DNA from: Candidatus Heimdallarchaeum aukensis
Lineage (GTDB): Archaea > Asgardarchaeota > Heimdallarchaeia > Heimdallarchaeales > Heimdallarchaeaceae
Reading direction: 5' to 3'
DNA: 64,000 bases
NCBI GenBank assembly: GCA_021513695.1
Contig: CP084166.1
Span: 1,472,001 to 1,536,000 of the forward strand
A program made the translations under genes and the position numbers. Positions 27,874-45,891 of the stretch are shown here, piece after piece. Position 1 is the stretch's first letter. The number at the start of each line of letters is the position of its first letter. The notes beneath the pieces are model-generated. The model searched no databases. It saw only the letters and a list, made by a program, of their open reading frames with translations, and had not been told where the DNA came from.

Positions 27874-28479
27874 TCAGTCATACTTTTTTTCTAAATTATT
27901 TATTACGCGTTCTAAAATTATCTTTTCTTCTTCATTTTCCTCTTTAATCATTAGATTCCAAAGAATAGGTAGAGACTTTTTAGTTGCATATTTAGTGATT
28001 AGACTTAAAGCTAGTTTTTTAGGAAAAGATTCATTCTCATTTGATATTATAGTTAACAATATTTTTTCCATCTCATCGTTACTTAGTTTCTTTCTTTCGT
28101 GTATTTTTCTTAGGGCTGTCCCTTTAATAATTCCTGATAAACCCCTTCTTACTTCCTTTACAAGAAAATCTTTGCTATCAAAGTTTTCATATTCAGCTAA
28201 AGTTTCAATAATAGCGATTTTTACACTTTCATCTTTTTCTCTATAATACATTCTTTCAAGTTTTTCTCCATTATTTTTTGAATCATAATTTTTCAATTGA
28301 ATAGCTGCTAAAACTCGAACCTTATAAAATTGCTCTTTTTCTATTACTTCAAACAAGAAATCTGCAATATCTGGATCACGTAAATTGTTCCATGCAATGA
28401 GTAGATCGATTTTTTCTTTATCGTTACCTTTTTTGAATTTAGATTTCATTTTTGAAGGTTCTATATTCATCAAAAACAA
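27874..28479 (-). CDS. HEAT/PBS-lyase-like repeat protein (hypothetical)
   Basis: Repeated ~30-aa helical units with 'VRV.A...L' and 'A.R.I' patterns; no catalytic motifs. Confidence 0.35.
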   Translation of the reverse strand: MFLMNIEPSKMKSKFKKGNDKEKIDLLIAWNNLRDPDIADFLFEVIEKEQFYKVRVLAAIQLKNYDSKNNGEKLERMYYREKDESVKIAIIETLAEYENFDSKDFLVKEVRRGLSGIIKGTALRKIHERKKLSNDEMEKILLTIISNENESFPKKLALSLITKYATKKSLPILWNLMIKEENEEEKIILERVINNLEKKYD

Positions 28480-32910: not shown

Positions 32911-33333
32911 ATGTCAGAAAATAGCGTTACTATGGCAAAAATGACCAAATTAGTGGCAGAGGAACCAATCGAGTTACCTGAAGAATTTTTGGAAGCTCTT
33001 AAACCAGATGGAAAGAGTCATGCAGTGTTAATTTTAGCACCGAATACTAGAATAATAAGAATCATACCCACAGAATCGCCTGAAGTGATAAAGATTAATA
33101 TCAATATAGGAAAACTTTCTCCAGATTTCCTACGTAAAATGGGATCAATCTTTATTCGACTTGGGATTAAAACTTTGTACAGCACTGGGTTGTGTTTCAC
33201 TCAAAGCGCATGTGTATACGAAGGGTACATAGATAGTGAAGAGTTAAAAGAAGTTTCTATCGACACAATAAAGGACGAGTTAGAGAGAATAGAAGGCGTT
33301 TCTAGCGTCGAAGTAGAACATCTAACAGTGTAA
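32911..33333 (+). CDS. Hypothetical small regulatory-type protein (140 aa; possible swapped-hairpin N-terminus plus ACT-like C-terminus)
   Basis: 'HAVLILAPNTRIIRIIP', then 'KININIGKLSPDFLRKMGSIFIRLGIKTLYST...DTIKDELERIEGVSSVEV'. Weak resemblance only. Confidence 0.3.
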   Translation: MSENSVTMAKMTKLVAEEPIELPEEFLEALKPDGKSHAVLILAPNTRIIRIIPTESPEVIKININIGKLSPDFLRKMGSIFIRLGIKTLYSTGLCFTQSACVYEGYIDSEELKEVSIDTIKDELERIEGVSSVEVEHLTV

Positions 33334-33448: not shown

Positions 33449-34147
33449 CTAAGCAAGACTATCTACTTGCTCTTTTTTTTCAGAAAGAATTTCTTCTTCT
33501 ACTTCTCCTAGTACCCAGTCACCTAGAGAGATAGAAAAAGTTGTATCTTGATGTCCGGGGCATTCAATACGAATCGTTAAACTTTTTTTTGTTTTTTCGA
33601 TAATAGTGGGAACCAGACAGTTATCTTCTAGAATATCTATTAAAGCTGAAACATAAGTATCAGAGATCGAGCTTATACTTTCTTCTTGAATTCTATTTCC
33701 CAAAGGACCTAACTTATAACAAGTTTTTCTACCTTCTTTATATTTAGAAATAAGCCCTGCTTCTATCATTCTTTCTACATGATGTCGTACTGTATCATGA
33801 TGTAAATTAAGTTCTCTTGCAATATCAGATTGATAGGTTCCTTCATTATTCGCTATACAACTAAAAATTTTTTTAGCTGTTGGATGTTTTATTGCAGTAA
33901 AAGCCTTTTCTACCTCTTCTGTTCTAAGATTTCTGGGATAATAGACCCTTTTTCCACCAAATTTTATAGATTTTATCAAATTAGCTTTTTCTAGTTGTCT
34001 TAAGTGCCAGTCAATAGTTCCCTGAGGGAGAGACAAAATATTGGAGAGTTCAAAGAAATACAGACCTGGTGTTTCACAAAGTATCTTATAGATTTCTTTT
34101 CTTTGAGGATGCAAAATTAATGTTTGCTCTTTCCTTTTTATAGGCAT
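33449..34147 (-). CDS. Transcriptional regulator with two winged-helix (ArsR/TrmB-like) DNA-binding domains
   Basis: wHTH 1 'RKEIYKILCETPGLYFFELSNILSLPQGTIDWHLRQLEKANLIKS'. wHTH 2 'AKKIFSCIANNEGTYQSDIARELNLHHDTVRHHVERMIEAGLISK'. Divergent from the MoxR operon (130-bp intergenic region). Confidence 0.6.
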   Translation of the reverse strand: MPIKRKEQTLILHPQRKEIYKILCETPGLYFFELSNILSLPQGTIDWHLRQLEKANLIKSIKFGGKRVYYPRNLRTEEVEKAFTAIKHPTAKKIFSCIANNEGTYQSDIARELNLHHDTVRHHVERMIEAGLISKYKEGRKTCYKLGPLGNRIQEESISSISDTYVSALIDILEDNCLVPTIIEKTKKSLTIRIECPGHQDTTFSISLGDWVLGEVEEEILSEKKEQVDSLA

Positions 34148-34277
34148 AATGTCCCTCTCACAATATTATATTTACTACTTCTTTGTTAAAAAACTTTTTT
34201 GAGAAACAAGACTAAATTCGAGAAATGATAAATATATAGATTTTTAAGTGAGTATAGCGAGTTGTTTTTGAGTAGAA

Positions 34278-35279
34278 ATGGGTGCAACAAAAAGCAAAAA
34301 AACGAGCACTAAAGAGATTAATATAGAAGATATTTCTATCAAAGTTCAAGAAATAAAAAAGGAAATTGCTAAAGTAATTGTAGGACAAGAAAAGGTTATT
34401 GATGCTCTAATAACAGCTGTGCTAGCAGATGGTCATGTTTTATTAGAAGGAGTTCCTGGAATTGCAAAAACATTGATGGTAAGAGCTCTTTCTAAGGCTA
34501 TTTCTGCAGAATTTAAGAGGATCCAATTCACTCCAGACTTGATGCCATCAGATGTAACTGGAGTTATGGCTTATCGTCCCGAAACGGGTGAATTTTATTT
34601 CAAAAAGGGACCAGTTTTTACAAATATTTTACTTGCAGATGAAATAAATCGAGCTCCACCTAAAACACAAGCAGCAATGTTAGAGTCTATGCAAGAAAAA
34701 CAAGTTTCTGTTGAGAAACAGACCTATTCACTCCCAGATCCATTTTTAACTTTTGCAACACAGAATCCACTTGAACAAGAAGGAACTTATCCTCTTCCAG
34801 AGGCACAAATAGACAGATTTGCATTCAAGCTTCTGGTTGATTATCCTGAGGAAGAAGAAGAGATCCAGATAGTTAATAGGTTTACTGGAGAATATGATTC
34901 TTATGATAAATTAGAAGATGTCAAACCAGTATTAGGTTCAAAAGAAATAATTGAATTTCAAAAATATATCAGAAAAAATATTTCAATTTCTGAAGAATTA
35001 TCAAGATACATAGTAAGAGTTGTTAGCCTTACCAGAGAAAGTGAAGAAGTCGCAATTGGTGCAAGCCCAAGAGCGAGCCTATGGTTGACAATCTCTGCAA
35101 AGGCTTCTGCTGCTATGGCAGGAAGAAAATTTGTTAAACCAGAAGACATCCAAAAAGTTGCAGTAAATGTTCTCAGACATAGAGTAATAATCAAGCCTGA
35201 ATATGAATTTGATGGAACAACTTCAGAGATGATTATTGATAGAATAATAAAACACACTCCAGCACCTGTAGTAGAATAA
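34278..35279 (+). CDS. MoxR-family AAA+ ATPase
   Basis: Walker A 'LLEGVPGIAKT', Walker B 'LLADEINRAPPKTQAAMLESMQEKQVSV', the MoxR-specific 'TQNPLEQEGTYPLPEAQIDRF', sensor 2 'GASPRAS'. Length 333 aa. Confidence 0.9.
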   Translation: MGATKSKKTSTKEINIEDISIKVQEIKKEIAKVIVGQEKVIDALITAVLADGHVLLEGVPGIAKTLMVRALSKAISAEFKRIQFTPDLMPSDVTGVMAYRPETGEFYFKKGPVFTNILLADEINRAPPKTQAAMLESMQEKQVSVEKQTYSLPDPFLTFATQNPLEQEGTYPLPEAQIDRFAFKLLVDYPEEEEEIQIVNRFTGEYDSYDKLEDVKPVLGSKEIIEFQKYIRKNISISEELSRYIVRVVSLTRESEEVAIGASPRASLWLTISAKASAAMAGRKFVKPEDIQKVAVNVLRHRVIIKPEYEFDGTTSEMIIDRIIKHTPAPVVE

Positions 35280-35293
35280 AAAGGGCGATTAAG

Positions 35294-37468
35294 TTGAAAT
35301 CGATTAAATCGAGAATCTTCCTTTTGATATTAATTCTGGAATTCATAGTTATAGGTGCACTAAGTGTTACAAAAGTAACATTATCTAATCATCAAAACAT
35401 TGTTCAAGCAGAAGAAGGAGATTTGACAGTAACAATCCGAAGAGAGCAAATTTATTATAAAAATAACACAGAACTAACTAGAGGATATATTTATTGGGCA
35501 GACTTAAAAGGAGGAACTTTGATACTTTATGGAAATACTTCTTCATCAGAAATGTTCTCTTACGCATTTTGGGATTCAGTAGGAAATTATTCAAGTGACA
35601 GATTAACTTTCTATCCAGACAGAATAGAGATTCAGATTAGAACAACAGAATTATACTACGAGATATATGGTGCTTATCACCCAGATTATTTTATCGACAC
35701 TAATTTCATTGTAATCTTTGACACATTTTGGGCGCAGTTTAGTTATATTACTCCAGAAGGAGAAGAAAGGTATGCACCTGTCAATTATTATAATAAACAA
35801 GTACTTCCTGAAGGAGCAGGACTGGTAAGTTATGCCCCTACTGATGGAGCTCTAATTGAAAAAGTAGGAGAAGAAATATATGCAATCGTATGGGAATATA
35901 AAGAAAGAATGATGGATCCATTTCACGAACCCTTTCCCTATGAAATAACTTATACATTTGACCCAATTTATTTGGCTTTCACTGAACAAATGTTTCAGAA
36001 CCAACAAGAACGACAAAAAAATGAAAATGAAAAGAATTTGTTAGATATGCTTAAAACCTATTTTAAATTGATTGCATTTCTTGCTGTTATTCTTAGTATT
36101 GTTGCTGCGATATTTGGTTATTTACGTGCAAGGCATAAGTTCAAGTCAAAGCTACAAGAAGCAATCAACCTACCTAAAAGAATGTTAAAAGATATTGAGA
36201 GAGAAGTTGAACCTTCAAAACGGGTATCATCCATGTTTAGTGCGGGTTTCTTTCTGTTTTTGTTACTGATGCCCGTAGTAACATCACAATTACAAGACGT
36301 ACAAACTACTGAACCGATGTTAGTAAATAATAATACACAGATTGGTTTAGCAGGGCTTAACTCATCTCTTAAACAAGAGGATCGTGATATTCAATATACC
36401 GCAATTATTGATTTAGGAAAAACAGGAATTTCCTTTGAGACAGTAATAATGGAACTTCCCTATACAGTAGAAAATTTCAGCATTTGGGTAAACACTGAAA
36501 GTGTCATAGAGTTTAACGCTTATGACAGTTCTGGTTTACCAATTTCATATCAAGAATTTTCTGATCACTACTTGATACGCAATGTAAAAGGGTATATTAG
36601 ATACGAAATTATTAAACCCTATCAATATTATAACAATAGTAATATTTTAGTGTATATAGACTATTTTTGGCTTAATTTCTTTGATTACGAGATAGGAAAT
36701 TATTCAAGAGCAGATATTCAATATACTCTTATCCTCCCAGAGGATTCTATATTATATAGTGCTTCGCCAGAATCAATTCTTACTCTTGGAAAAACTCCAG
36801 AGGGAAGAAGAAAGGTAACTTTTACAGACTATAATCGCCAGATTGACCCTTACCATGACTTATTTTCTTGCCAAGTCACGTACTCATTTATTGATGTTTT
36901 AGACGCAATAGAAAATGAATCAGCGCGTTTCGAACACTTTAGGGTGGAAACTAAACTCACTCAAGAACAGATAAACACTCTTACAAAAAACATAATGTTT
37001 CTCGCGTTTATTGCAATTATCGCACCAATATTAGCTTTCTTACTCTCATATTATATTATGAGAAACCGAATGATGAAAAAGATAAAAGAAGAGGAGCAAA
37101 AACATGAGCTTTTAATTTCTGTAGAAGAATTACAGATTAAAGCTCTCAATGAAAGTGGAAAAATCGATGAGAATAAAGAACCATGGAAACCGATGTTAGG
37201 AGGTTATTGGGAACTACTAGCTTACCTTAGTAGATATACTCCTATAAACTTATTATCGCTAGACGATTCTATGCATGAAAAAATTCTCTCAAAATACATT
37301 CCTAAACACTTACGCCAAGAAATTTTTGAGCTTTTATCTACAGGACGAGCCATTTCTTCATCAATAAAAAAAGGAGAAACAATTTATTTCACAAAAAGTC
37401 AAGCTAGAGATTATTTAGAAGCCATAATGAAGGCAATCGAAAAGATGGAAAAAGAAAGGAAAGGATAG
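35294..37468 (+). CDS. Large membrane protein with an internally duplicated ~230-aa extracytoplasmic domain (2x [hydrophobic anchor - domain - TM]) and a ~130-aa cytoplasmic tail
   Basis: TTG start 15 bp after the MoxR stop. Hydrophobic segments near aa 8-25, 257-276, 315-332 and 565-588. The two intervening domains share collinear motifs ('FIVIFDTFWAQFSY..' vs 'ILVYIDYFWLNFFDY..'; 'DPFHEPFPYEITYTF' vs 'DPYHDLFSCQVTYSF'). Confidence 0.5.
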   Translation: MKSIKSRIFLLILILEFIVIGALSVTKVTLSNHQNIVQAEEGDLTVTIRREQIYYKNNTELTRGYIYWADLKGGTLILYGNTSSSEMFSYAFWDSVGNYSSDRLTFYPDRIEIQIRTTELYYEIYGAYHPDYFIDTNFIVIFDTFWAQFSYITPEGEERYAPVNYYNKQVLPEGAGLVSYAPTDGALIEKVGEEIYAIVWEYKERMMDPFHEPFPYEITYTFDPIYLAFTEQMFQNQQERQKNENEKNLLDMLKTYFKLIAFLAVILSIVAAIFGYLRARHKFKSKLQEAINLPKRMLKDIEREVEPSKRVSSMFSAGFFLFLLLMPVVTSQLQDVQTTEPMLVNNNTQIGLAGLNSSLKQEDRDIQYTAIIDLGKTGISFETVIMELPYTVENFSIWVNTESVIEFNAYDSSGLPISYQEFSDHYLIRNVKGYIRYEIIKPYQYYNNSNILVYIDYFWLNFFDYEIGNYSRADIQYTLILPEDSILYSASPESILTLGKTPEGRRKVTFTDYNRQIDPYHDLFSCQVTYSFIDVLDAIENESARFEHFRVETKLTQEQINTLTKNIMFLAFIAIIAPILAFLLSYYIMRNRMMKKIKEEEQKHELLISVEELQIKALNESGKIDENKEPWKPMLGGYWELLAYLSRYTPINLLSLDDSMHEKILSKYIPKHLRQEIFELLSTGRAISSSIKKGETIYFTKSQARDYLEAIMKAIEKMEKERKG

Positions 37469-37470
37469 AA

Positions 37471-38154
37471 ATGAAACAAGTAACAAAAATCATAATATTT
37501 TCAATGGTTGTTAGTTTACTACTAATTCAGATCAATAATGTCAATGCTAAAGAAACAGTTTTTACTGCTACACAAATAATAGATATAAACGAAACTACTC
37601 AGATAACAGTTTCCATGGCAGCCCCGTTAACTTGGGAAATAAACACGGGAATAAACATTTCTGTAAATATAAAGTTATCAAAAATTGCTCAGAATGATAG
37701 TCTATTTATTACTTATATCAAAACAGAATATAATATTCCAGGAAAACAATTCCCCGAAGACCAACAAATCACAATAATTGAAAATAATCTAACAAATATC
37801 GGTGAACAAATCAGCATTAACCAAACTCGTTATGCACCTGAGAATACTGATGAATTTAACATTACCTTATCGATCCTTGCTCAGACAGTAAACATGACCA
37901 GTACAGAAGAGTTTTCCATGGATTTTCCAGGAAAAGGTGAAGATAATATTTTAGTTAAGAAGAATTTAGTTCTGCCTATAATCAATCTGCCTGGTTTCCC
38001 CAATATCGAAACATTTAGCAGGTGGATAGTTATCTTTGTTGTGATTCAATTAGTTATTATGTCACCTGCGCTCTTTGTCTTATATTTCAAAATAAAAAAA
38101 CAAAGAACACGGGGCCAGGTATCGAAGAAAAAAAGGAGTGGAGAAGATGAGTAA
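37471..38154 (+). CDS. Secreted/anchored protein (signal peptide, ~150-aa ectodomain, C-terminal TM, basic tail)
   Basis: Starts 3 nt after the previous stop. 'IIIFSMVVSLLLIQINNVNA' is a signal-peptide-like N-terminus. C-terminal TM 'WIVIFVVIQLVIMSPALFVLYF' followed by KIKKQRTRGQVSKKKR. Confidence 0.45.
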   Translation: MKQVTKIIIFSMVVSLLLIQINNVNAKETVFTATQIIDINETTQITVSMAAPLTWEINTGINISVNIKLSKIAQNDSLFITYIKTEYNIPGKQFPEDQQITIIENNLTNIGEQISINQTRYAPENTDEFNITLSILAQTVNMTSTEEFSMDFPGKGEDNILVKKNLVLPIINLPGFPNIETFSRWIVIFVVIQLVIMSPALFVLYFKIKKQRTRGQVSKKKRSGEDE

Positions 38155-39745
38155 AACTGAAACTAAACAACAAAATCCCTTAGAAAGAGGAGTAAGAAAA
38201 ATAGATGTTCTGATGCGTTCATTTGGAATGCGTACTAGAATGTTTAAGGGAAAAACGAGAGGGATAGTAAAGGGAACAAGAAAGGTTTACCCTCATGAAG
38301 TCAATGCTACGATTGTAGAGACAGCAAGGGGAGTAGGAATCAAAATAAAGATGGAAAAATTGTGGTATTCATTTCTAAAAGGAATTCCTTTTCTATTTCT
38401 GATAATACTCTCTCTAATTCAATTAATTGCACCAAAAATTGGAGAGAATATGGCAGAAAATGTTGGTTTTAATTTGTTTGCACTCTTTCTTGGAACAAGA
38501 ACTAAATCTATTGGATTACTAATTACGCTTTTTATTATTGGAGGAATTTTTATTGTTAGTGAGATAATAGAGAGGACAATTAGATTGAGATATCTCCAAG
38601 ACAGGATGCCCAGATTTTTGAGTGGAGCTGAATGGACAACTGCTGATTCACCATTATTATTAGATATCATAAGTTCTACAAATAATATTTTGTGGTTAGC
38701 ATATCTCATATTAGTAATAATCTTTGCACCATTTTCTTTTTCATCAGAAATAATTGAAAAGTTTGTAACAGTATATCAAACTGGCATAGTTAATTTGCTA
38801 GAAGGTACAACGCTTGTTTCACTACTAGATATATCAATAATATCCAGTATGTTATTTACAATATTATTGCTAAATTACAAGTCGTTTAGAGAAGAAATAG
38901 ATTCAAAGCAAAGAGCAAGCAGAGTAAAAGTAGATTATAGTACAACACAACTTTTAGAAGTTGTCTTTGGTTCAATTACACTTATCACATTTGAAATAGT
39001 TCTATTTTCATTTATGTTTTGGACGGATCTTACTTTAATCCAAATTATAATGACTTATAGCGTTACTGTAGCGGCTAGTATTCTAAGTGTGTGGCTTTAT
39101 TGGCAGAGAGAAAACTATATTTTCATTTTTCTTGAGATATGGCTTTTCTTAAGCATAGTAGTCATGGTTTTCAGTAACGCAAATAATCCTAAATTCTCTT
39201 GGATGATAATTTGCCACCTTTTCCTAATTCTGACAATTTTAGGTTTGTATTTTAATCAATTTTTCAAATCTTATTTAGAAGAAAAAGGAATATATGAACC
39301 TAGTTGGATGTTTAATTCTTTCCCAATCTTTGCGATTATTGAAGTCCTTAAAAAAGCAAAAGTAAGAACTACAAAAGGAGTACAAAAAGAATTAGAAGAA
39401 ATAAGAACAGAAGAATTAACAGAGAAAATAAAAGAACGTTCTCCTCTTATAATTCCGCTTGAAAAAATAACTAAAAAAGGAAAGGATGCAAAAAAGATAA
39501 TCAACACATACCAAAAAATTATCGACCGCATAACAAAGAAAGATGTAAACATTATTACTTTATCTGTAATTAATGAAGAGATTTTAGCGCTAATACAAGA
39601 TGAAGCAGAACTAAGGAAAAAAGTAGAAAACTTATTCCAAATTATTGATCATCTTCTTTGGGACGAAAGCTATATCCTGAAAGATGGAAGCAAATATGTT
39701 GAAATAACAGAACAACTCTACAGCGCAGTCTTAAAGGCAAGGTGA
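38147..39745 (+). CDS. Polytopic membrane protein (about 8-10 TM) with a ~150-aa C-terminal cytoplasmic coiled-coil domain
   Basis: Overlaps the upstream gene. The ATG at 38147 is preceded by GGAG; the track's GTG is at 38138. Multiple long hydrophobic helices and a Lys/Glu-rich C-terminal region. Confidence 0.45.
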   Translation: MSKTETKQQNPLERGVRKIDVLMRSFGMRTRMFKGKTRGIVKGTRKVYPHEVNATIVETARGVGIKIKMEKLWYSFLKGIPFLFLIILSLIQLIAPKIGENMAENVGFNLFALFLGTRTKSIGLLITLFIIGGIFIVSEIIERTIRLRYLQDRMPRFLSGAEWTTADSPLLLDIISSTNNILWLAYLILVIIFAPFSFSSEIIEKFVTVYQTGIVNLLEGTTLVSLLDISIISSMLFTILLLNYKSFREEIDSKQRASRVKVDYSTTQLLEVVFGSITLITFEIVLFSFMFWTDLTLIQIIMTYSVTVAASILSVWLYWQRENYIFIFLEIWLFLSIVVMVFSNANNPKFSWMIICHLFLILTILGLYFNQFFKSYLEEKGIYEPSWMFNSFPIFAIIEVLKKAKVRTTKGVQKELEEIRTEELTEKIKERSPLIIPLEKITKKGKDAKKIINTYQKIIDRITKKDVNIITLSVINEEILALIQDEAELRKKVENLFQIIDHLLWDESYILKDGSKYVEITEQLYSAVLKAR

Positions 39746-39749
39746 TATA

Positions 39750-40691
39750 ATGTCTAATCCAGCCAAAGAAGAAAAAAAAACGTTACAAAAAGATAAAGTA
39801 AAGATTCCTATAAAAAAACTGAAAAAACTAGAAATTTTAGCAAAAGAACGTTCAACAAGCTTTCTACAAGGACATCGAAGATCGATCTTTAGAGGACCAG
39901 GAACCGAATATGCAGATTTAAGAGAATATGTTGAGGGAGACGATCTCAGATTTGTTGATTGGAATGCATCATCACGTATTCCTTTCAAACTAATTGTTAG
40001 AGATTATGAACAAGAAAGAAATACAAATGTAGTTTTGATGCTTGATGTTAGTCATTCGATGTTATTAGGTGATCCAGTACCAAGGATCAAACTTGCAGTT
40101 GAAGCAAGTGCTACATTAGCTTATACAGTCCTAATAAATCGAGATTTATTTGGTTGGGCTAGTTTCTCAGATAAACTACACAATTATATTCCTCCCCGTG
40201 GTGGAAAATTGCACTTTTATCATATTGTTCATGAAATGCTCAAGATTGCTCCACATGGTAAAACTAATATCGGTGATGCTATTCGTGAAGTGGCTTTATC
40301 TTTAAAGAGAAGATCAATAATTATCTTACTCACTGATTTACATGGAAATTTAGAAGGTGCAATGAATGGTTTTAAAGTTGCAAAATTAAAAAAACACGAA
40401 GTTAAAGTAATTCATACTGTTGATCCAGAGGAATTTCTTTTTCCAAAGAATCCTAGACAAGTAAAATACCTTGATCCTGAAACAAATCAAATGAAAGTAG
40501 TTAATTTTAGTAATTTGCTTGAACGAGGAAAATATAATTACGAAATTGGTTTAAAAATCAAGGAAATTAACAATTTTAAGAGAAACATAAGAGGGTTAAA
40601 CATTGACGTAGTTACTGCATCAACTACAATGTTAACTGAGAGATTATTACTTACTTATTTTGGATCAAAGAGAGGGAGGGCTTTAAAATGA
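39750..40691 (+). CDS. DUF58-family protein (vWA-like; the canonical MoxR partner)
   Basis: 'FRGPGTEYADLREYVEGDDLRFVDWNASSR' is the DUF58 signature (G.G.ef...R.Y..GDd.R.IDWk..AR). It is followed by a vWA-like 'VVLMLDVSHSM' (MIDAS-type D-x-S-x-S). Confidence 0.8.
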   Translation: MSNPAKEEKKTLQKDKVKIPIKKLKKLEILAKERSTSFLQGHRRSIFRGPGTEYADLREYVEGDDLRFVDWNASSRIPFKLIVRDYEQERNTNVVLMLDVSHSMLLGDPVPRIKLAVEASATLAYTVLINRDLFGWASFSDKLHNYIPPRGGKLHFYHIVHEMLKIAPHGKTNIGDAIREVALSLKRRSIIILLTDLHGNLEGAMNGFKVAKLKKHEVKVIHTVDPEEFLFPKNPRQVKYLDPETNQMKVVNFSNLLERGKYNYEIGLKIKEINNFKRNIRGLNIDVVTASTTMLTERLLLTYFGSKRGRALK

Positions 40692-42559
40692 AAAGAAACT
40701 TAATATCTGTTTCTCTAATATATCTTGTTATAATAAGCACTTTTAGCTTTGTTGTAACTTCTGATTTCAAAATCGTTTCTGCTGGGAGTAGTAGTTCTGG
40801 AGATATTCCTCCACCAGGTGGTCAAGGAGGAGAGGATACTAGCGGCGGTGGTGCTGCAGGAGGGTTATACCTCAATTATCGTATTCCATTAATATTTAAG
40901 AAAGGAGATTTTGCACCAACGTTTATTGCAATTACAGCTTTACCCATCTTTCAAAATGAAACTATAGTAATTTTTGGTTATAATTCTTCATTATTTGAGA
41001 ATAATCAAGCTATTATAAAGGGAAATGAAACACTTATAATTGATCCTCGAGACGAACCTGAGTTAACAAATGGTTCATTGATACAATCTTTTTCTCCATT
41101 ACAAATTACTGTTTTTCATCCAAATACAAATAATGAAAGCGATAATTCATTTTCTTATTCAGTATTAGTTATGCAAAATTGGGGAAAGAAATATCTTTCT
41201 TCTTTTTCAGATATGAGAGCAATTATAGTTGCAGGCTTTAACAGTACAAAGTTAACAATTAATAACAATGGAATAATGCAATATGAAACCATTGATCTGA
41301 TTGGACAAACATTAGATATTTCGGTTACTAAAGGAACCATTATAGAAGCAAATGGACCAATAGGAGTGGTTTTTTACTCTTTAACAGATAGCCAAGGTTC
41401 TTTCGCTTATACAGGAGTCCCATATTACATGTGGGGAAAAGAGTATTTTACACTCCCTCCACCAAGAAAAACGCATGATACCTTAATTGAAGATAACTCT
41501 ACTTTAGTACTTGGGAATATAAATGAAGGAGGAACTTTAATTTTCGAAACTTCAGAAGAAGAATCAGATATATTAAACTTGGAAGAAAATCAAACAATTA
41601 CATTAGAAAAACAAAAGTTAGGAACAAATGATTATTATACACATTTTCTATCTGCAGCTGTAAACTATTCTGTTACTACGTTATATTCTTATGTTATCAA
41701 TGGTACTATATACAAATCTGCATTCCAATATATTTCTACAGAAAAGATGAGATGGGCAGAATGGTTCTATAATAATAAAATATCAGATAACCTAAAAATC
41801 TCTTCTGTTTCTTTGGATGATTCAAATATTATTCTTCCAATACTACTATATGAAGGGCAATTAGTTATTGATCTCGAAAATTATTCTTCTGTTGACAGGG
41901 GCGAATATTATTCATATAAACAAGGAACTAGTTATGGCGTTATTTCAGCTAATGGTTCTTTGTTTGCTTCACAGATTGTATCAGATGAAGAAAAAATATT
42001 AGAGAACAGCCTTTCTCATTTACTTTTTCCAATGAATCTTTACTCTTTTGTTGATAACACGAGCTCCTCTTTTCCGAGTTGGTATCATTTTCCAAACATA
42101 AATGTAAAAGAAGTAAATGTCTACCCTGAAAAACCAACAGAACTAAGAAAACTTAAACTTGAAATTGTTATTCAAAATAATGGTAGTATTCCCTCTGCTC
42201 CATTTTGGGTCAGCATTTTTAGAAATGATACTATAAAGATACACAAAAAAATAGACGGATTAGATATTAATGAAACTTTTAGCATTCCTTTTGAGGAATT
42301 TCAAGGATTCGGACTTAAGACATTAAACATATCCATCTACACAGACTCTTTAAGTCAAATATTTGAATTAATAGAATTTGATAATGCATATGAACTTATG
42401 ATTAAAGTTAATCGTAATTGGAATATAATCTATGTTGGAATTGCAGTTTCTGTACTAATAATAGGTTATCTTTCTTATCTTGTAATAAGAAAATTTGTTG
42501 CCAAATATAAGGAAAACAAGAGAAAATTCGATATTATTCTAAGTGAGATAGAGGTCTAG
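40688..42559 (+). CDS. Large secreted protein (signal peptide, Ser/Gly/Pro-rich linker, ~550-aa ectodomain, C-terminal TM anchor)
   Basis: Overlaps the DUF58 stop by 4 nt. N-terminal 'LISVSLIYLVIISTFSFVVTS', then 'SSSSGDIPPPGGQGGEDTSGGGAAGG'. C-terminal TM 'IIYVGIAVSVLIIGYLSYLVI' plus the basic tail RKFVAKYKENKRK. Confidence 0.45.
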   Translation: MKRNLISVSLIYLVIISTFSFVVTSDFKIVSAGSSSSGDIPPPGGQGGEDTSGGGAAGGLYLNYRIPLIFKKGDFAPTFIAITALPIFQNETIVIFGYNSSLFENNQAIIKGNETLIIDPRDEPELTNGSLIQSFSPLQITVFHPNTNNESDNSFSYSVLVMQNWGKKYLSSFSDMRAIIVAGFNSTKLTINNNGIMQYETIDLIGQTLDISVTKGTIIEANGPIGVVFYSLTDSQGSFAYTGVPYYMWGKEYFTLPPPRKTHDTLIEDNSTLVLGNINEGGTLIFETSEEESDILNLEENQTITLEKQKLGTNDYYTHFLSAAVNYSVTTLYSYVINGTIYKSAFQYISTEKMRWAEWFYNNKISDNLKISSVSLDDSNIILPILLYEGQLVIDLENYSSVDRGEYYSYKQGTSYGVISANGSLFASQIVSDEEKILENSLSHLLFPMNLYSFVDNTSSSFPSWYHFPNINVKEVNVYPEKPTELRKLKLEIVIQNNGSIPSAPFWVSIFRNDTIKIHKKIDGLDINETFSIPFEEFQGFGLKTLNISIYTDSLSQIFELIEFDNAYELMIKVNRNWNIIYVGIAVSVLIIGYLSYLVIRKFVAKYKENKRKFDIILSEIEV

Positions 42560-42562
42560 TAA

Positions 42563-44947
42563 ATGAGCGAAACAGATGTAAAGCAAAAAGAAGAAGTAGA
42601 AGAAGTAGAGGAAGTAGAGGAATCATTCACTAAATTTAGTGTTATACTTGGACGAGATCTAATCTTCTTAGATTGGACAGTAAATTTTGGTGGACAAATC
42701 TTAGGTTTAGTAGTTGGTTTATTATTAGGAGTAATTTTTGGAGCCAAGATGGGGACACTCTTTAACATAGATGTTCCTGTTGACATTAGTGCATATATTG
42801 CCCTACAAGTTGGAATACTTCTTAGTATCACTAGTTTAACAATTTATTATTTATCAAAGCTCGGCATTAAGGTTAACAGTCCAAAATCAATTGCAAGTAA
42901 GAAACTTCTTCTTCTAAAAACAATAATGTTTGCTTTTTCAGCTATCTTTGCTTTAAGCTATTTATTTAATAGTCATATTTTCCCATTTATATATGCAAAT
43001 TATAGCTCTATAAAACCCCCAGAACCAGGACAAACAGGAACTGGAGATGGAGGTGAAGGAAATACAGTAGATATTCCTACAACTAACCATTATATTGTTC
43101 TTATTGCATTGATCGTTCTTGTTGCAGCTTCATACGCTTTACTTTATGCAGGATTGTTTTACTCTTTTAACAAAAAAGCCAACACGATGACAGGAGTTGC
43201 AATAATGGTTAGCACTATAATGGCAGCACTTACATTACTAAGCCAAAATCAAAGCGTCCAAAAGCTAATTGATGGAGAAATAATGGCTTTTCTTACAGAT
43301 TTTGCATATTTCTTCTTAGTAGCTTTAATAGCCATTCTTTCATATCACATGTGTAGGAGAATAGAATTATCCTTAATTATAATGTATATAGGTTTCATTT
43401 TTGGTTTTGGTGCCCCTTCAAATGCTGTTTCACAGATCATCGCTTTAAAATGGGGTTTTCCAAACTTTTCTGATGGAATTAATTCTACTTCAGATGTTAT
43501 TACAAGGACTCTTGAACTTATAGAGTATGTAAGTTTATTTGGAATTGTTGTTTACCCACTTATTTTTTACAAGGATACAATATCAGCATTAAAAGAATTG
43601 AAGAAGATGTATAGATTACCTTTCCTATTAATTAAATTTTTAGGGTTAATAATAATCACACCATTTAAGATAATATTCAAACCAAAAATTTTAGTTCATT
43701 TTTATAATGGAGTTAAACAAATAGTAATTGATGAAGAAAAAAGAAATATCTCTTTCAAAAAATTAAAAACAAAATTAAGCGAGGAATTTAAGGCTATTAC
43801 TTCCTCAGAAGGTTTTTCTGTCACTTTGTTTGCTGCTGTGCTTATCTTAATTGAAGTGACAATACTCTTTTTAGCGAATCTACTGGGAATTTTCCTTTAT
43901 TTCATCGCTTTTCTCATTTTAATAGGTATTGTAAATAGTATTATTACTTCAAAATATGGAGCTGCAAGTTATACAGCAATGTTTTCTGCATTAACAGAAT
44001 CTTCTTTGAGTGTATCTCCTTTAGTTCCTGACATTAACGTACAAATTAAATTCTTAGAATATAAGAAAAAACAATTAGAAAAAACAAAAATTGCAGTTGG
44101 TACTTTAATTCCTGTATTTGCTTACTACATAATTGCTTACATTACTACAGCAATAACTAAAGATACGTCTCTATTGACAATACTTTTCTTAATGATTCTT
44201 GTTCCTATCAGTCTTGCTTTAGCTTCTTTTTCAATAAGCTTCTTCTATGTCAAAAAACCACTAATTAAAGAGATTTACACCTATCCACTTCGATTTTTCT
44301 ATTTTTTGGGATTGATAGTATACTTTTCGATTTCTGTTTATCGCTTAATATACAACCAAATTGGTCTTTTTCCAGCTTTTTCGCTTCTCTATCTTGTTTT
44401 AATCTATATCACTTTCTCAAAGAGATCTAAACTTTCTGAACTTATTTTATTTCTAGGAACAGAGAAAAGAGATAGAGCATTTAATGAACTTATAAGTAAA
44501 AAAAATCTCAATATTGATGTTTTATTGCAAAATTTAGATGATACACCATCATATCTCAGCTTTTGGATAAGTGCAATTCTAATTAAGAGAAACAAAAAAG
44601 AGGTTATTACTTACTTAAAAGATCTACTCAAACAAGACTATAAATATCAAAGAGTAATAGGAGCATTGTCTTTACTTTATTTAAACGAATATGATTATTT
44701 AGAAGAACTTGTTAATTTACTAGAAAACGACCCCGACCCCTACTTACGAGAAGCAATAGCTTACGGATTAAGATATTGCAAAGATATGAAAATAGATATT
44801 TACAAGAGAATTATTGACGCACAACATTACGAAGATAATTCAAAAGTTTTAGTAAGGCTCAAGGAAACAATCTCCATCTTAGATAGATACTTTGCAAACA
44901 AAGAACGAAAAGAAGAAGAAATGGAAGAACTCGTAGAAGTAATATAA
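42563..44947 (+). CDS. Polytopic membrane protein (more than 12 TM) with an N-terminal acidic EEVEEVEEVEE tract and a C-terminal cytoplasmic HEAT/PBS-lyase-like repeat domain
   Basis: Starts 4 nt after the previous stop. Hydrophobic helices run through aa ~40-600. The C-terminus has 'VIGALSLLYLNEYDYLEELVNLLENDPDPYLREAIAYGLRY' HEAT-like repeats. Confidence 0.45.
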   Translation: MSETDVKQKEEVEEVEEVEESFTKFSVILGRDLIFLDWTVNFGGQILGLVVGLLLGVIFGAKMGTLFNIDVPVDISAYIALQVGILLSITSLTIYYLSKLGIKVNSPKSIASKKLLLLKTIMFAFSAIFALSYLFNSHIFPFIYANYSSIKPPEPGQTGTGDGGEGNTVDIPTTNHYIVLIALIVLVAASYALLYAGLFYSFNKKANTMTGVAIMVSTIMAALTLLSQNQSVQKLIDGEIMAFLTDFAYFFLVALIAILSYHMCRRIELSLIIMYIGFIFGFGAPSNAVSQIIALKWGFPNFSDGINSTSDVITRTLELIEYVSLFGIVVYPLIFYKDTISALKELKKMYRLPFLLIKFLGLIIITPFKIIFKPKILVHFYNGVKQIVIDEEKRNISFKKLKTKLSEEFKAITSSEGFSVTLFAAVLILIEVTILFLANLLGIFLYFIAFLILIGIVNSIITSKYGAASYTAMFSALTESSLSVSPLVPDINVQIKFLEYKKKQLEKTKIAVGTLIPVFAYYIIAYITTAITKDTSLLTILFLMILVPISLALASFSISFFYVKKPLIKEIYTYPLRFFYFLGLIVYFSISVYRLIYNQIGLFPAFSLLYLVLIYITFSKRSKLSELILFLGTEKRDRAFNELISKKNLNIDVLLQNLDDTPSYLSFWISAILIKRNKKEVITYLKDLLKQDYKYQRVIGALSLLYLNEYDYLEELVNLLENDPDPYLREAIAYGLRYCKDMKIDIYKRIIDAQHYEDNSKVLVRLKETISILDRYFANKERKEEEMEELVEVI

Positions 44948-45024: not shown

Positions 45025-45891
45025 ATGAGTATTCGAATTGTAACAGATAGTGCGTCTGATATAGATAGAAACTTTGCTAAAGAAAAAAAAGTAGCTGTTG
45101 TTCCTTTATCTGTCACCTATAATACTGGTGAAACATTTAAAGAAGATGAGAATTTCGATTTTGACAAATATTACAATAATTATTCAGATCCAGATTTTTC
45201 GGTAACAACGTCACAACCTTCACCAAAGGATTTTCTTAACGTGTATGAACAGTTAAAAAAAGAAGGTGCAAAAGAAATTATTGTAATTACAATTAGTTCT
45301 GGTCTATCTGGAACTCTTAATAGTGCACAATTAGCAGCTAAAATGTTTCTGAAAATAGAAAAAGATATTGAAATTTATTTTGTAGACTCATTAAATGCTT
45401 CCATGCCAGAAACTTTTCTTGTAGAAGAGGGGCTAAAATTAATAGATAAGGGTCTTTCAGGTAAGGAAATAGCTGAAAAGCTGCAAAACTCTACAAATGA
45501 AATAACTACATTAATTTTATTACCTACACTTTATTATCTAAGAAAAGGAGGAAGAATAAGCGTTGCTAAATATCTCCTCGGAAGGTTGCTACAATTAAAA
45601 CCCATCACAATTGTAAACGAAGAAGGAAAGAATGAAGTCACAGCTACTGTTCGAGATTATGATGAGGGATTAGTAAAAATGATCGAGATAGCAACTCAAA
45701 ACTATACAAGAACACCCGTAGAAGTTGCAATAGTACACACAAATAGTATGGAACGTGCAACTAAACTACAAAATTTGATAAAAGAAAAACTTGGTGACAT
45801 AAAAATACGTATTGTTAGAAGTGGAGTAACTATTTCTGCTCATACAGGACCAAAATGTGTTTCGCTTATATCAAAATTCTTTGAATTTTAA
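45025..45891 (+). CDS. DegV-family fatty-acid-binding protein
   Basis: 'IRIVTDSASDI', 'VAVVPLSVTY', 'TSQPSPKDFLNVYEQLKKEGAKEIIVITISSGLSGTLNSAQLAA', 'FVDSLNAS' match the DegV consensus along the whole length. Confidence 0.8.
   Translation: MSIRIVTDSASDIDRNFAKEKKVAVVPLSVTYNTGETFKEDENFDFDKYYNNYSDPDFSVTTSQPSPKDFLNVYEQLKKEGAKEIIVITISSGLSGTLNSAQLAAKMFLKIEKDIEIYFVDSLNASMPETFLVEEGLKLIDKGLSGKEIAEKLQNSTNEITTLILLPTLYYLRKGGRISVAKYLLGRLLQLKPITIVNEEGKNEVTATVRDYDEGLVKMIEIATQNYTRTPVEVAIVHTNSMERATKLQNLIKEKLGDIKIRIVRSGVTISAHTGPKCVSLISKFFEF

Follow-up and report, generated by a model that had tools for sequence, protein, structure and literature searches.

Seven co-directional genes of Candidatus Heimdallarchaeum aukensis, coding for a MoxR ATPase, a DUF58 protein and five envelope proteins, form a locus conserved across Heimdall-group Asgard archaea. 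The proposal that it encodes one multi-subunit envelope machine, limited to this group and assembled or remodelled by MoxR/DUF58, has in our estimation an even chance of being right. The genes occupy positions 34278–44947 of the window (the whole stretch of 64,000 nucleotides that was analyzed), in the order MoxR, p724, p227, p535, DUF58, p623 and p794.

Gene layout and conservation

The features of the locus and its upstream neighbours are as follows.

u140: 32911..33333, + strand; 140 aa, no family
regulator: 33449..34147, − strand; dual winged-helix protein, ArsR/HTH_20-like
regulator-moxR intergenic region: 34148..34277; 130 bp, AT-rich, presumed promoter/operator
moxR: 34278..35279, + strand; MoxR AAA+ ATPase of the MoxR-proper subfamily, cytoplasmic
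p724: 35294..37468, + strand; duplicated 4-TM protein, predicted Ost1/ribophorin-I-like fold
p227: 37471..38154, + strand; signal peptide, ectodomain, TM helix, basic tail
p535: 38147..39745 (probable start; originally 38138), + strand; polytopic, ~8–9 TM helices
DUF58: 39750..40691, + strand; VWA-fold protein, cytoplasmic
p623: 40688..42559, + strand; signal peptide, IgGFc_binding-like and CARDB domains, TM helix
p794: 42563..44947, + strand; polytopic, predicted CPBP/Rce1-fold core and C-terminal HEAT domain

As called from the ORF layout, the junctions between the seven genes measure 14, 2, −17, 4, −4 and 3 nt. The true start of p535 is probably ATG 38147 (532 aa), since this is where its homologues and the NCBI model start, and it is preceded by a GGAG motif; p227 and p535 would then overlap by 8 nt, and the gaps would range from −8 to +14 nt. 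The close packing described in the first-pass annotation is thus confirmed, with its gap of −17 nt probably being one of −8 nt, while of the "several" 4-nt ATGA overlaps claimed there just one exists, at the DUF58/p623 junction. SD-like motifs precede the internal genes of the operon, p724 starts with TTG, and p794 is separated from degV by 77 nt. The DUF58 gene does lie in mid-operon, apart from moxR, as had been noted. According to hydropathy, all five partners have a signal peptide or TM helices, in agreement with the topologies first described for them, and MoxR and DUF58 have neither.

In 30 Heimdallarchaeota species genomes, the seven-gene order is kept wherever the locus is long enough. 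About 25 Heimdall-group Asgard species share it unchanged, and it is strict both in Heimdallarchaeaceae and in a distant clade that is Kariarchaeaceae-like, which settles affirmatively whether it recurs in relatives, a check suggested at first reading, and places the locus far beyond chance. In the distant clade (L029–L031) the gene lengths are near-identical to those of the window, with identities of 57% for MoxR, 47–49% for DUF58 and 23–34% for p724, p227, p535 and p623. The flanking MFS, u140 and acdAB genes are likewise syntenic, so the conservation of the operon partly reflects the overall collinearity of genomes in this family. In one distant lineage (L002/L003) there is a p623-like plus p794-like pair, with moxR, p724, p227, p535 and DUF58 absent within 10 kb of it; this pair, at least, is thus able to persist apart from the ATPase. 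The five partner families are confined to Heimdallarchaeia, a narrow phyletic range. In public annotation they are hypothetical proteins, and the literature that was searched yielded no paper connecting MoxR with Asgard archaea, save one incidental mention.

The ATPase, the VWA protein and the five partners

MoxR and DUF58, the pair recognized from the start, were corroborated by Pfam, with matches of MoxR to AAA_3 (5.9e-64) and AAA_lid_2 (8.7e-21), and of DUF58 to PF01882 (1e-36) and VWA_2 (3.6e-11). The best PDB match of MoxR is 2R44 (Cytophaga MoxR, E=2.9e-84), midasin being next. Across 21 orthologues, its Walker A (GxPGxAKT) and Walker B (LLxDEINR) do not vary, and the MIDAS of DUF58 is intact, with D-x-S-x-S and T-D invariant in 31 orthologues. 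Concerning the partners, searches of Pfam, NCBIfam, PADLOC and PDB sequences gave no characterised family, the matches being generic only: IgGFc_binding and CARDB for p623, HEAT_2 for p794. So, their initial description as uncharacterised holds in that the HMM searches found no family with an established role, but p724 and p794 have recognisable predicted folds. The cytosolic loop and tail motifs of the partners vary little or not at all.

When 1.84 billion proteins were searched exhaustively with a p724 profile, 27 matched. The duplicated ectodomain attributed to it is borne out by BLASTP of one half against the other (E=1e-13). Its layout comprises an N-terminal TM helix, beta-sandwich ectodomain 1 (~aa 46–221), TM2, a basic loop in the cytosol that is conserved and contains the invariant D300-I301-E302, TM3, beta-sandwich ectodomain 2 (~aa 366–531), TM4 and a cytosolic helical bundle (aa 631–723). 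The structure model, of moderate confidence (pLDDT 67.6), indicates a duplicated fold like that of Ost1/ribophorin I (PDB 6C26, 6S7O, 8B6L; PMC11417166), a match that sequence searches did not support. The global TM-scores against the latter are low (0.2–0.3) because the domain orientations differ, and in p724 the two sandwiches are separated by an additional TM hairpin with a cytosolic loop.

This resemblance brings up a reading in which the locus, as an accessory module, assists protein translocation or N-glycosylation; p724 would be a divergent Asgard OST1/ribophorin I paralogue holding nascent glycoproteins, and perhaps ribosomes via its cytosolic bundle; MoxR-DUF58 would assemble the module, and the remaining subunits would act like other OST or TRAP accessory proteins. 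We consider it rather unlikely, as p724 shows no sequence similarity to Ribophorin_I or any OST/TRAP Pfam family, its two ectodomains are separated by the extra hairpin, and its gene stands beside MoxR/DUF58 and not beside AglB or OST genes, AglB/STT3 being absent from the locus and from the 30 flanking window ORFs of at least 200 aa that were scanned. Besides, Asgard archaea are reported to have sequence-detectable OST1 homologues, and p724 is not one of them, so it is probably not a canonical OST1.

p794 is all-helical and polytopic, with a motif region at ~aa 185–300 and a C-terminal cytosolic HEAT-repeat domain (~aa 620–790), proposed earlier and now matched by HEAT_2. Its modelled core appears to be a CPBP/Rce1 fold and resembles SpdC, an inactive scaffold of the CPBP family whose structure was determined together with that of SagB (Staphylococcus aureus, PDB 6U0O) and which is the best structural match. 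Unlike SpdC, to which it is 9% identical, p794 is three times larger, with ~8 extra TM helices and the HEAT domain, and the glycosidase partner is absent. A search of p794 for the CPBP catalytic motifs found them absent: the window family has LLYAG.xYS where distant orthologues carry LExFLRG, and neither group has the two His motifs.

In p623 (17 sequons), the S/G/P linker of the first description turned out to be a G/S/P-rich segment at the mature N-terminus, conserved in sequence (alignment A1) and not a random linker. The protein continues with an IgGFc_binding-like domain at aa 127–301 (PF17517, 28.5 bits; cut-off 25.6), a further ectodomain, a CARDB domain at aa 472–569 and a TM helix, and its short cytosolic tail terminates in the conserved FD.IL.(D/E)IEV (alignment A1). 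CARDB scores 21.9 bits, below the cut-off of 22.7; it is above the cut-off in the orthologue L031, and the p623 profile matches the archaeal CARDB structures 3idu and 2l0d (E ~0.008). In p227, hydropathy places a sequon-rich ectodomain of ~140 aa after the signal peptide, and the juxtamembrane motif L-x-G-F-P...F..W is invariant (alignment A8); Pfam and NCBIfam gave no family, and hhalign no homology to p724 or p623. p535 has a conserved N-terminal cytosolic domain of ~75 aa with invariant ETARG (alignment A7), followed in the hydropathy profile by the TM helices and, at the C-terminus, by a cytosolic tail of ~130 aa that is helical; a search with 18 members found no Pfam or PDB match. N-glycosylation sequons are abundant in the predicted ectodomains, at 1.5–4.4 per 100 aa (4.4 in p227); the density is 0–0.6 in MoxR, DUF58, the regulator, AcdA/B and those portions of the cluster proteins that are cytosolic, and 1.4 in the neighbouring cytosolic DegV.

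Membrane-proximal proteolysis or quality control, in which DUF58 would recruit, MoxR would unfold and p794 would cleave as a CPBP-type intramembrane protease, possibly at L-x-G-F-P of p227, would parallel the MoxR-vWA-TgpA/YebA system, a predicted precedent with a membrane peptidase (PMC3495828). The predicted fold of p794, the near-threshold Rce1-like matches of its distant orthologues and the invariance of the p227 motif are in its favour. It is nevertheless unlikely, considering the missing motifs of p794, its best structural match to SpdC, which is not known to act as a protease, and the failure of Pfam to find other peptidase domains in the operon.

Proposed mechanism and comparison with known systems

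In MoxR/VWA pairs such as RavA-ViaA and NorQ-NorD, the client is brought in by the MIDAS of the VWA protein and remodelled by the ATPase (PMC9976466, PMC3893208, PMC3495828). In the envelope machine proposed here, MoxR would be a cytoplasmic ring ATPase and DUF58 a VWA adaptor, cytoplasmic too, and the five remaining proteins would associate physically in a membrane complex. p724, p535 and p794 (an SpdC-type CPBP fold, catalytically dead, that bears a HEAT arm) would be its membrane scaffolds, and p227 and p623 its single-pass surface subunits, probably N-glycosylated. Through its MIDAS, DUF58 would grip a membrane subunit by an acidic residue that lies in a conserved element on the cytosolic side; the candidate ligands are the D-I-E of the p724 loop and two C-termini, the (D/E)IEV end of p623 and the acidic end of p794. 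MoxR would spend ATP in pulling on or remodelling the gripped subunit, and in the direction of action that we infer this would make the complex assemble, mature or switch its conformation across the membrane. The dual-wHTH neighbour would control transcription of the operon.

The view of the locus as an undescribed envelope system stands as to its lineage-restricted partners and conserved order, but MoxR-vWA-membrane systems have been predicted before (PMC5898192; Bat, TgpA), so it is not a new category. The archaeal arCOG01314 (DUF4350)-MoxR-vWA neighbourhood is a predicted secretion/membrane-remodelling complex (Makarova, Galperin, Koonin 2015, PMC5898192). Likewise archaeal, it also combines a MoxR-type ATPase (COG0714) and a vWA protein with membrane-anchored proteins that have extracellular beta-sandwich (Ig-like) domains, some of them with 2 or 4 TM helices, and with small polytopic membrane proteins. 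The locus studied here differs in its five Heimdallarchaeia-confined families, its CPBP-fold plus HEAT protein and its Ost1-like duplicated protein. A novel apparatus of that secretion/remodelling sort, with p623 or p227 as exported cargo or conduit, would follow the same logic of parts, MoxR/GvpN ATPase included, and yet seems quite improbable: the hallmark DUF4350/GIFT protein and PF07760 (DUF1616) are undetectable here by sequence, the vWA is cytoplasmic, without signal peptide, and not secreted, and nothing recognisable as a channel-forming or secretion-ATPase component turned up.

Bat (Bacteroides aerotolerance) MoxR-DUF58 operons occur in Bacteroides, Borrelia (BB0170-0176) and Leptospira (PMC5700661). 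They share a MoxR-proper ATPase and DUF58, co-transcribed there with a set of inner-membrane proteins, with a predicted role in envelope or stress physiology; in contrast, the archaeal locus lacks, by Pfam, the TM-VWA proteins BatA/BatB, the TPR protein BatC, BatD and BatE, and its DUF58 is separated from moxR. MoxR-vWA-TgpA/YebA operons (Zhang and Aravind, PMC3495828) also couple MoxR and DUF58 to a large polytopic protein with a peptidase-superfamily domain, which in p794 would be a CPBP fold with degenerate motifs and not a transglutaminase fold. The bifidobacterial PFNA cluster (PMC8430577) has a beta-sandwich surface protein as well, FN3 in its case; unlike PFNA/TgpA, this locus has no kinase. 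A MoxR-vWA-class system for anti-virus defence or conflict, to which the narrow phyletic range and a weak bpMoxR Pfam match (2.9e-12) might point, is highly improbable given the far better AAA_3 score, the absence of beta-propeller or effector domains, the empty PADLOC result for the six non-regulator partners, and the stable chromosomal position amid housekeeping genes with strict vertical synteny.

Regulator and flanking genes

Upstream of the locus by 7 kb there is a Transglut_core protein (25815–27185), with no evidence linking it to the operon. By tblastn synteny, every locus has u140 immediately upstream of its regulator, with 84–100% identity between species; it has no Pfam or PADLOC match, and is no more than a possible member of the system.

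The regulator matches HTH_20, HTH_5 and HTH_HVO_0163_N of Pfam, each in two stretches, and ArsR/SmtB of NCBIfam (3e-20). The divergent dual-wHTH regulator with a 130-bp shared region, as first described, is thus correct for the window, but its orientation is peculiar to the genus: it is inverted only in Heimdallarchaeum (the window and L004, H. endolithica), while in all the other loci, at least 16, it is co-directional with moxR and directly upstream of it. No significant inverted repeat was found in the flanks of the inverted regulator. The 130-bp intergenic region is the presumed promoter/operator, and contains a TATA-like A/T-rich stretch, ATAAATATATAG, at 34229–34240, which precedes the moxR ATG by ~40 nt.

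Gene order and phyletic range of the cluster

Exact protein matches (UJG42090-UJG42097) identified the source of the window, whose GC content is about 32%, as the chromosome of Candidatus Heimdallarchaeum aukensis. The MoxR-DUF58 cluster and its immediate neighbours are arranged as follows:

32911-33333, plus strand, u140, gene of a 140-aa protein
33449-34147, minus strand, dual-wHTH ArsR-like regulator
34278-44947, seven ORFs all in the same direction, from moxR to p794
45025-45891, plus strand, degV (DegV/FakB-like), between the operon and acdB

With the ORFs as listed, the intergenic gaps from moxR to p794 are 14, 2, -17, 4, -4 and 3 nt. The start of p535 is put at ATG 38147 by alignment with its homologues, by the NCBI gene model and by a GGAG motif, so that p227 and p535 overlap by 8 nt. 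Several 4-nt ATGA overlaps had been claimed in the first-pass annotation; only the one at the DUF58/p623 junction was found. The 77 nt located 3′ of p794 hold a TATA-like box and a T8 run, and are followed by degV. The latter occupies that site only in the window, L004 (H. endolithica) and the homologous loci L011, L014, L015 and L027, and is a variable insertion outside the system.

The conservation of the cluster was studied by a p623 profile scan over one genome per GTDB species, which gave 30 loci, all in Heimdallarchaeota MAGs or genomes. One of them is labelled Thorarchaeota, and its sequences are within the identity range of Heimdallarchaeaceae. When the genes were mapped by tblastn and blastp, the order moxR-p724-p227-p535-DUF58-p623-p794, read at first in a single sequence, was kept in every locus long enough to display it. 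The DUF58 gene belongs to the same operon in all the loci, always four genes 3′ of moxR and never adjacent to it. The cluster is an operon-like unit under selection. The flanks are likewise syntenic (MFS and u140 upstream, acdB/acdA downstream), so part of the gene-order signal is family-level collinearity.

Table. Products of the seven genes in operon order: length in the window; identity to the window in typical loci; length in the distant loci L029-L031
MoxR: 333 aa; 75-79%; 328 aa
p724: 724 aa (TTG start); 56-64%; 718 aa
p227: 227 aa; 31-41%; 229 aa
p535: 535 aa (as listed); 47-55%; 532 aa
DUF58: 313 aa; 71-78%; 298 aa
p623: 623 aa; 40-52%; 594 aa
p794: 794 aa; 36-42%; 774 aa

All seven genes, at near-identical lengths, are also kept in L029-L031, a distant Kariarchaeaceae-like clade that includes isolate RS678, with identities to the window of 57% for MoxR, 47-49% for DUF58 and 23-34% for the partners. 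Between p794 and these positional orthologues BLASTP gave no match, and the link was recognized by profile-profile comparison alone (hhalign 94%, E=1.2e-7, 507 columns). Another distant lineage, L002/L003, carries a p623-like plus p794-like pair with the other five genes absent within 10 kb; the identities of this pair to its L029 and L031 counterparts are 39-40% and 26-32%. A trio of genes, coding for an AAA_16 protein (~560 aa), a protein of ~435 aa and another of 1241-1477 aa, lies 3′ of the L002/L003 pair and also of the complete L029 cluster. The regions compared were:

L002 10001-14000, and L003: p623-like plus p794-like pair (Logan DRR684994/DRR684990)
L029 8992-15639: region compared with L002/L003

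Word-seeded profile searches of 5.8 billion proteins yielded 52 relatives of p623, 53 of p724 and 34 of p794. Many matches are nameless, and the named sources are nearly all Heimdallarchaeota/Heimdallarchaeaceae, the exceptions being a few distant p623 relatives of Kariarchaeaceae, one p794 match labelled Thorarchaeota and one labelled 'Asgard group'. An exhaustive HMMER profile search with p724 over 1.84 billion representatives gave 27 matches, about eight of which are full-length 50% clusters. Pacearchaeota or Thorarchaeota labels are attached to some cluster members that are >90%, or 50-78%, identical to Heimdallarchaeaceae proteins; mis-binning or mislabelling is the likely origin of those labels. 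The system is confined to Heimdallarchaeia, the archaea closest to eukaryotes, and it is found in two closed genomes.

MoxR, DUF58 and the five partner proteins

The Pfam matches of MoxR are AAA_3 (214.3 bits, cut-off 27; 5.9e-64) and AAA_lid_2 (73.9 bits, cut-off 22.7); in the PDB, it is closest to Cytophaga MoxR (2R44, E=2.9e-84), with midasin next. Its Walker A (GVPGIAKT) and Walker B (LLADEINR) motifs are invariant in 21 orthologues. By these sequence features, it classifies as a canonical MoxR-proper ATPase. The DUF58 protein matches PF01882 (126.7 bits, cut-off 23.4; 1e-36) and VWA_2 (3.6e-11), and the residues of its MIDAS site (DxSxS...T...D) are invariant in 31 orthologues. Neither a signal peptide nor a TM helix was found in MoxR or DUF58, and the site of action of both is therefore the cytoplasm.

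Concerning the five partners, they are hypothetical in public annotation, and their description as uncharacterised held up: Pfam, NCBIfam, PADLOC and PDB sequence searches returned only generic modules in p623 and p794. NCBI and UniRef call the H. endolithica orthologue of p535 an 'endonuclease Q family protein', a name that misfits a 9-TM protein without such a domain.

The two halves of p724 are homologous to each other (E=1e-13). Its order of elements is a basic N-terminus, TM1, ectodomain 1, a Q-rich helix, TM2, a conserved basic loop, TM3, ectodomain 2, TM4 and a cytosolic tail, which is also conserved. In the basic loop, KFKSKLNEARSMPKKMLKDIE, residues A290, P294, D300, I301 and E302 are invariant. 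The hits of p724 to RNase_Y_N and DUF4064 in the Pfam, NCBIfam and PDB sequence searches were discarded as TM-composition noise, and that to DUF2207_C as weak (E=0.027) and irreproducible across members. The small partner p227 consists of a signal peptide, an ectodomain of ~140 aa, a TM helix and a basic tail, with an invariant L-x-G-F-P...F..W at aa 171-186, outside the membrane and ~8 residues before the TM helix; this juxtamembrane motif is loosely PGF-CTERM-like and non-canonical. The hhalign comparisons of p227 with p724 (17% probability) and p623 (3%) indicated no homology; p227 therefore does not correspond to one copy of the repeat in p724. In p535, a conserved cytosolic N-domain of ~75 aa with an invariant ETARG is followed by ~8-9 TM helices and a helical tail; it had no match in Pfam or PDB.

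Behind its signal peptide, p623 begins with a G/S/P-rich mature N-terminus and continues with a large ectodomain and a TM helix; its tail ends in FD.IL.(D/E)IEV. The G/S/P-rich stretch, taken formerly for a linker, is in the alignment the sequence-conserved mature N-terminus itself. IgGFc_binding scores above cut-off in p623 (28.5 bits); CARDB is slightly under cut-off in the window and over it in L031, and the profile matches archaeal CARDB structures. As to p794, the HEAT domain proposed for it was recovered as HEAT_2 in 20 of 23 members. Acidic cytosolic motifs recur among the partners: D-I-E in p724 (aa 300-302), (D/E)IEV-COOH in p623 and EE..LEEI-COOH in p794.

Per 100 aa, the predicted ectodomains contain 1.5-4.4 N-x-S/T sequons. 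The cytosolic parts of the cluster proteins contain 0-0.6, as do MoxR, DUF58, the regulator and AcdA/B; the value for the cytosolic DegV is 1.4. This distribution supports the predicted topology, and suggests that the ectodomain-bearing partners are glycosylated surface proteins.

The AF2 model of p724 (pLDDT 67.6 overall, 75-89 in the ectodomains) shows a pair of all-beta sandwiches and long TM helices, with a helical bundle at the C-terminus. At the fold level this is the Ribophorin I/Ost1 architecture, i.e. two tandem M1-N-type sandwiches, a TM helix and a cytosolic helical bundle. Owing to a different orientation of the domains, the global TM-scores stay low (0.2-0.3), so the feature common to p724 and Ost1 is the architecture. 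Asgard OST1 has the same layout, with a four-helix cytosolic domain that binds ribosomes (PMC11417166), and sequence-detectable OST1 homologues are reported in Asgard archaea (PMC11417166). Among 20 p724 members there was no match to Ribophorin_I (PF04597) at E<=0.1, nor did p724 match any PDB sequence at E<=10, the solved Ost1/RPN1 chains included. Given these negative results and the reported sequence-detectability of Asgard OST1, membership of p724 in the Ribophorin_I family was rejected and it is treated as Ost1-like in fold; p724 may be a remote Ost1 paralogue. Thirty ORFs of >=200 aa flanking the cluster in the window were scanned, and none is AglB.

The p794 model (pLDDT 74.7, pTM 0.61) is all-helical, and its membrane part has the CPBP fold in the predicted structure. 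None of the 23 Heimdallarchaeaceae members matches CPBP (PF02517); the distant positional orthologues reach Rce1-like Pfam scores of 21.8 and 18.7 bits, under the cut-off of 22.4, at the aligned region. The CPBP catalytic motifs EExxxR, FxxxH and HxxxN are missing from p794: in the window family the aligned positions carry LLYAG.xYS, and neither clade has the His motifs. The description that fits p794 best is therefore that of a pseudo-protease scaffold carrying a HEAT arm in the cytosol.

Related systems and possible mode of action

Of the published concepts, the nearest is that of the archaeal MoxR-vWA-membrane/Ig-like neighbourhood (Makarova et al. 2015, PMC5898192), other related systems being the Bat operons, the MoxR-vWA-TgpA system and the PFNA cluster. 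The arCOG01314 MoxR-vWA system includes a DUF4350/GIFT (GldG-like) membrane-anchored ectodomain protein, whereas the Heimdall cluster gave no PF14258 sequence match. The Ig-like 2- or 4-TM proteins of that system (COG4743/PF07760) are similar to p724 in architecture (4 TM, two beta-sandwiches), but not to the point of a PF07760 sequence match. In the Bat aerotolerance operon, BatA and BatB (TM plus VWA), BatC (TPR) and BatD stand beside MoxR-DUF58, while no BatA, BatD, TPR or second VWA was found in the five partners at E<=0.1. The operon of MoxR-vWA-TgpA/YebA systems contains a polytopic protein with a transglutaminase-like core, and there is no Transglut_core in the seven Heimdall genes. The MoxR-vWA-beta-propeller conflict systems combine a propeller with a bpMoxR ATPase; the Heimdall operon has no propeller, and its MoxR scores 46.5 bits against bpMoxR versus 214 bits against AAA_3. 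The Heimdall cluster lacks the defining components tested for the arCOG01314, Bat, TgpA and PFNA systems, with which it has its logic in common. It is real and conserved, and its specifics are undescribed; the literature searched for a link between MoxR and Asgard archaea gave one incidental mention only.

In RavA-ViaA, NorQ-NorD, CbbQ-CbbO and midasin, the VWA MIDAS holds an acidic residue of the client and the ATPase remodels the latter (PMC9976466, PMC3893208, PMC3495828). In the Heimdall cluster, the only conserved cytosolic surfaces besides MoxR/DUF58 are the loop and tail of p724, the termini of p535, the tail of p623, and the HEAT arm and acidic C-terminus of p794. The parts could form a transmembrane complex with p724, p535 and p794 as scaffolds and p227 and p623 as putatively glycosylated surface subunits, and the cytoplasmic MoxR-DUF58 pair would assemble this complex or switch its state. 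Candidate MIDAS ligands would be the D-I-E triplet of p724, which is invariant, and the p623 C-terminus, (D/E)IEV; EE..LEEI-COOH of p794 is a further candidate. To this mechanism, inferred from its parts, we concede an even chance.

One rival explanation sees in the cluster an arCOG01314-type system for secretion or remodelling (PMC5898192); the logic of the parts is shared, but the hallmark DUF4350 was undetected by sequence. A second rival, an accessory module of the translocon or of N-glycosylation built on an Ost1 paralogue, takes its sole support from the fold of p724. The absence of the catalytic motifs speaks against proteolysis or quality control in which p794 would be the peptidase. 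A conflict or defence system was rejected on the negative PADLOC result and the stable chromosomal synteny, and chance adjacency of the seven genes is excluded by synteny.

Wbp1/OST48 carries a GIFT domain (PMC7226087), the hallmark of arCOG01314. This, together with the Ost1-like p724, would place two OST accessory folds in archaeal MoxR-vWA envelope systems, a link that is suggestive only. A further idea is that the cluster is an ATP-driven envelope machine specific to Heimdallarchaeia and centred on a true but very divergent Ost1/ribophorin I homologue, and that archaeal MoxR-vWA envelope systems were then a source of eukaryotic OST accessory subunits; it is improbable in our judgement. If it were true, a MoxR ATPase, to which no prokaryotic protein closer to midasin and dynein is known, would be tied to the prehistory of the ER translocon and the glycosylation apparatus. 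The architectures of Ost1/ribophorin I and of the pseudo-protease scaffold are both themes of eukaryotic membrane-protein biogenesis.

Returning to the proposed complex that MoxR-DUF58 would assemble or switch, it would be, if real, a new envelope structure of Asgard cells and a tractable model of a cytoplasmic MoxR/VWA pair acting on transmembrane clients. Among the prokaryotic AAA+/VWA pairs for which no client is yet defined, MoxR-DUF58 modules rank with the most widespread. The locus offers a fixed, co-evolving set of five candidate membrane-protein clients, which makes the client question testable.

The regulator, u140 and other genes of the window

The regulator adjoins the cluster in 18 loci. 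In the window, it is separated by 130 bp from the operon it faces. The divergent arrangement noted in the first-pass annotation stands for the window and for H. endolithica (L004), but not for at least 16 other loci, where the regulator is co-directional and, as seen by comparing the window with L001 and L006-L027, located between u140 and moxR. The inverted regulator is limited to the genus Heimdallarchaeum, and the search for inverted repeats flanking it gave AT-rich noise only, with none that explains the inversion. Neither Pfam nor PADLOC assigns the u140 protein to a family. Its identity across Heimdallarchaeaceae is 84-100%, and it is better conserved than MoxR. Its gene is always immediately upstream of the regulator, and could belong to the regulatory unit.

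The remaining genes of the window are housekeeping (gluconeogenesis, GluRS, AOR, POR, ACD, purine synthesis). No signs of mobile elements were found in the scanned ORFs, and no tRNA or Rfam family matched in the window. The classical association of MoxR-DUF58 pairs is with membrane transglutaminases; a stand-alone Transglut_core protein of 456 aa is encoded ~7 kb upstream of the operon, and a HEAT_2 protein of 201 aa 6-8 kb upstream. Four further features were recorded:

14359-16347, plus strand, 662-aa protein with FG-GAP/beta-propeller repeats and a bacterial TSP3 repeat
25815-27185, plus strand, Transglut_core protein
27874-28479, minus strand, HEAT_2 protein
58733-61063, minus strand, 776-aa ORF joining Lyase_1 and ADSL_C (adenylosuccinate lyase) with AIRS and AIRS_C (AIR synthase)

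By its domain content, the 776-aa ORF looks like a PurB-PurM fusion, and the 662-aa protein is probably another surface protein.
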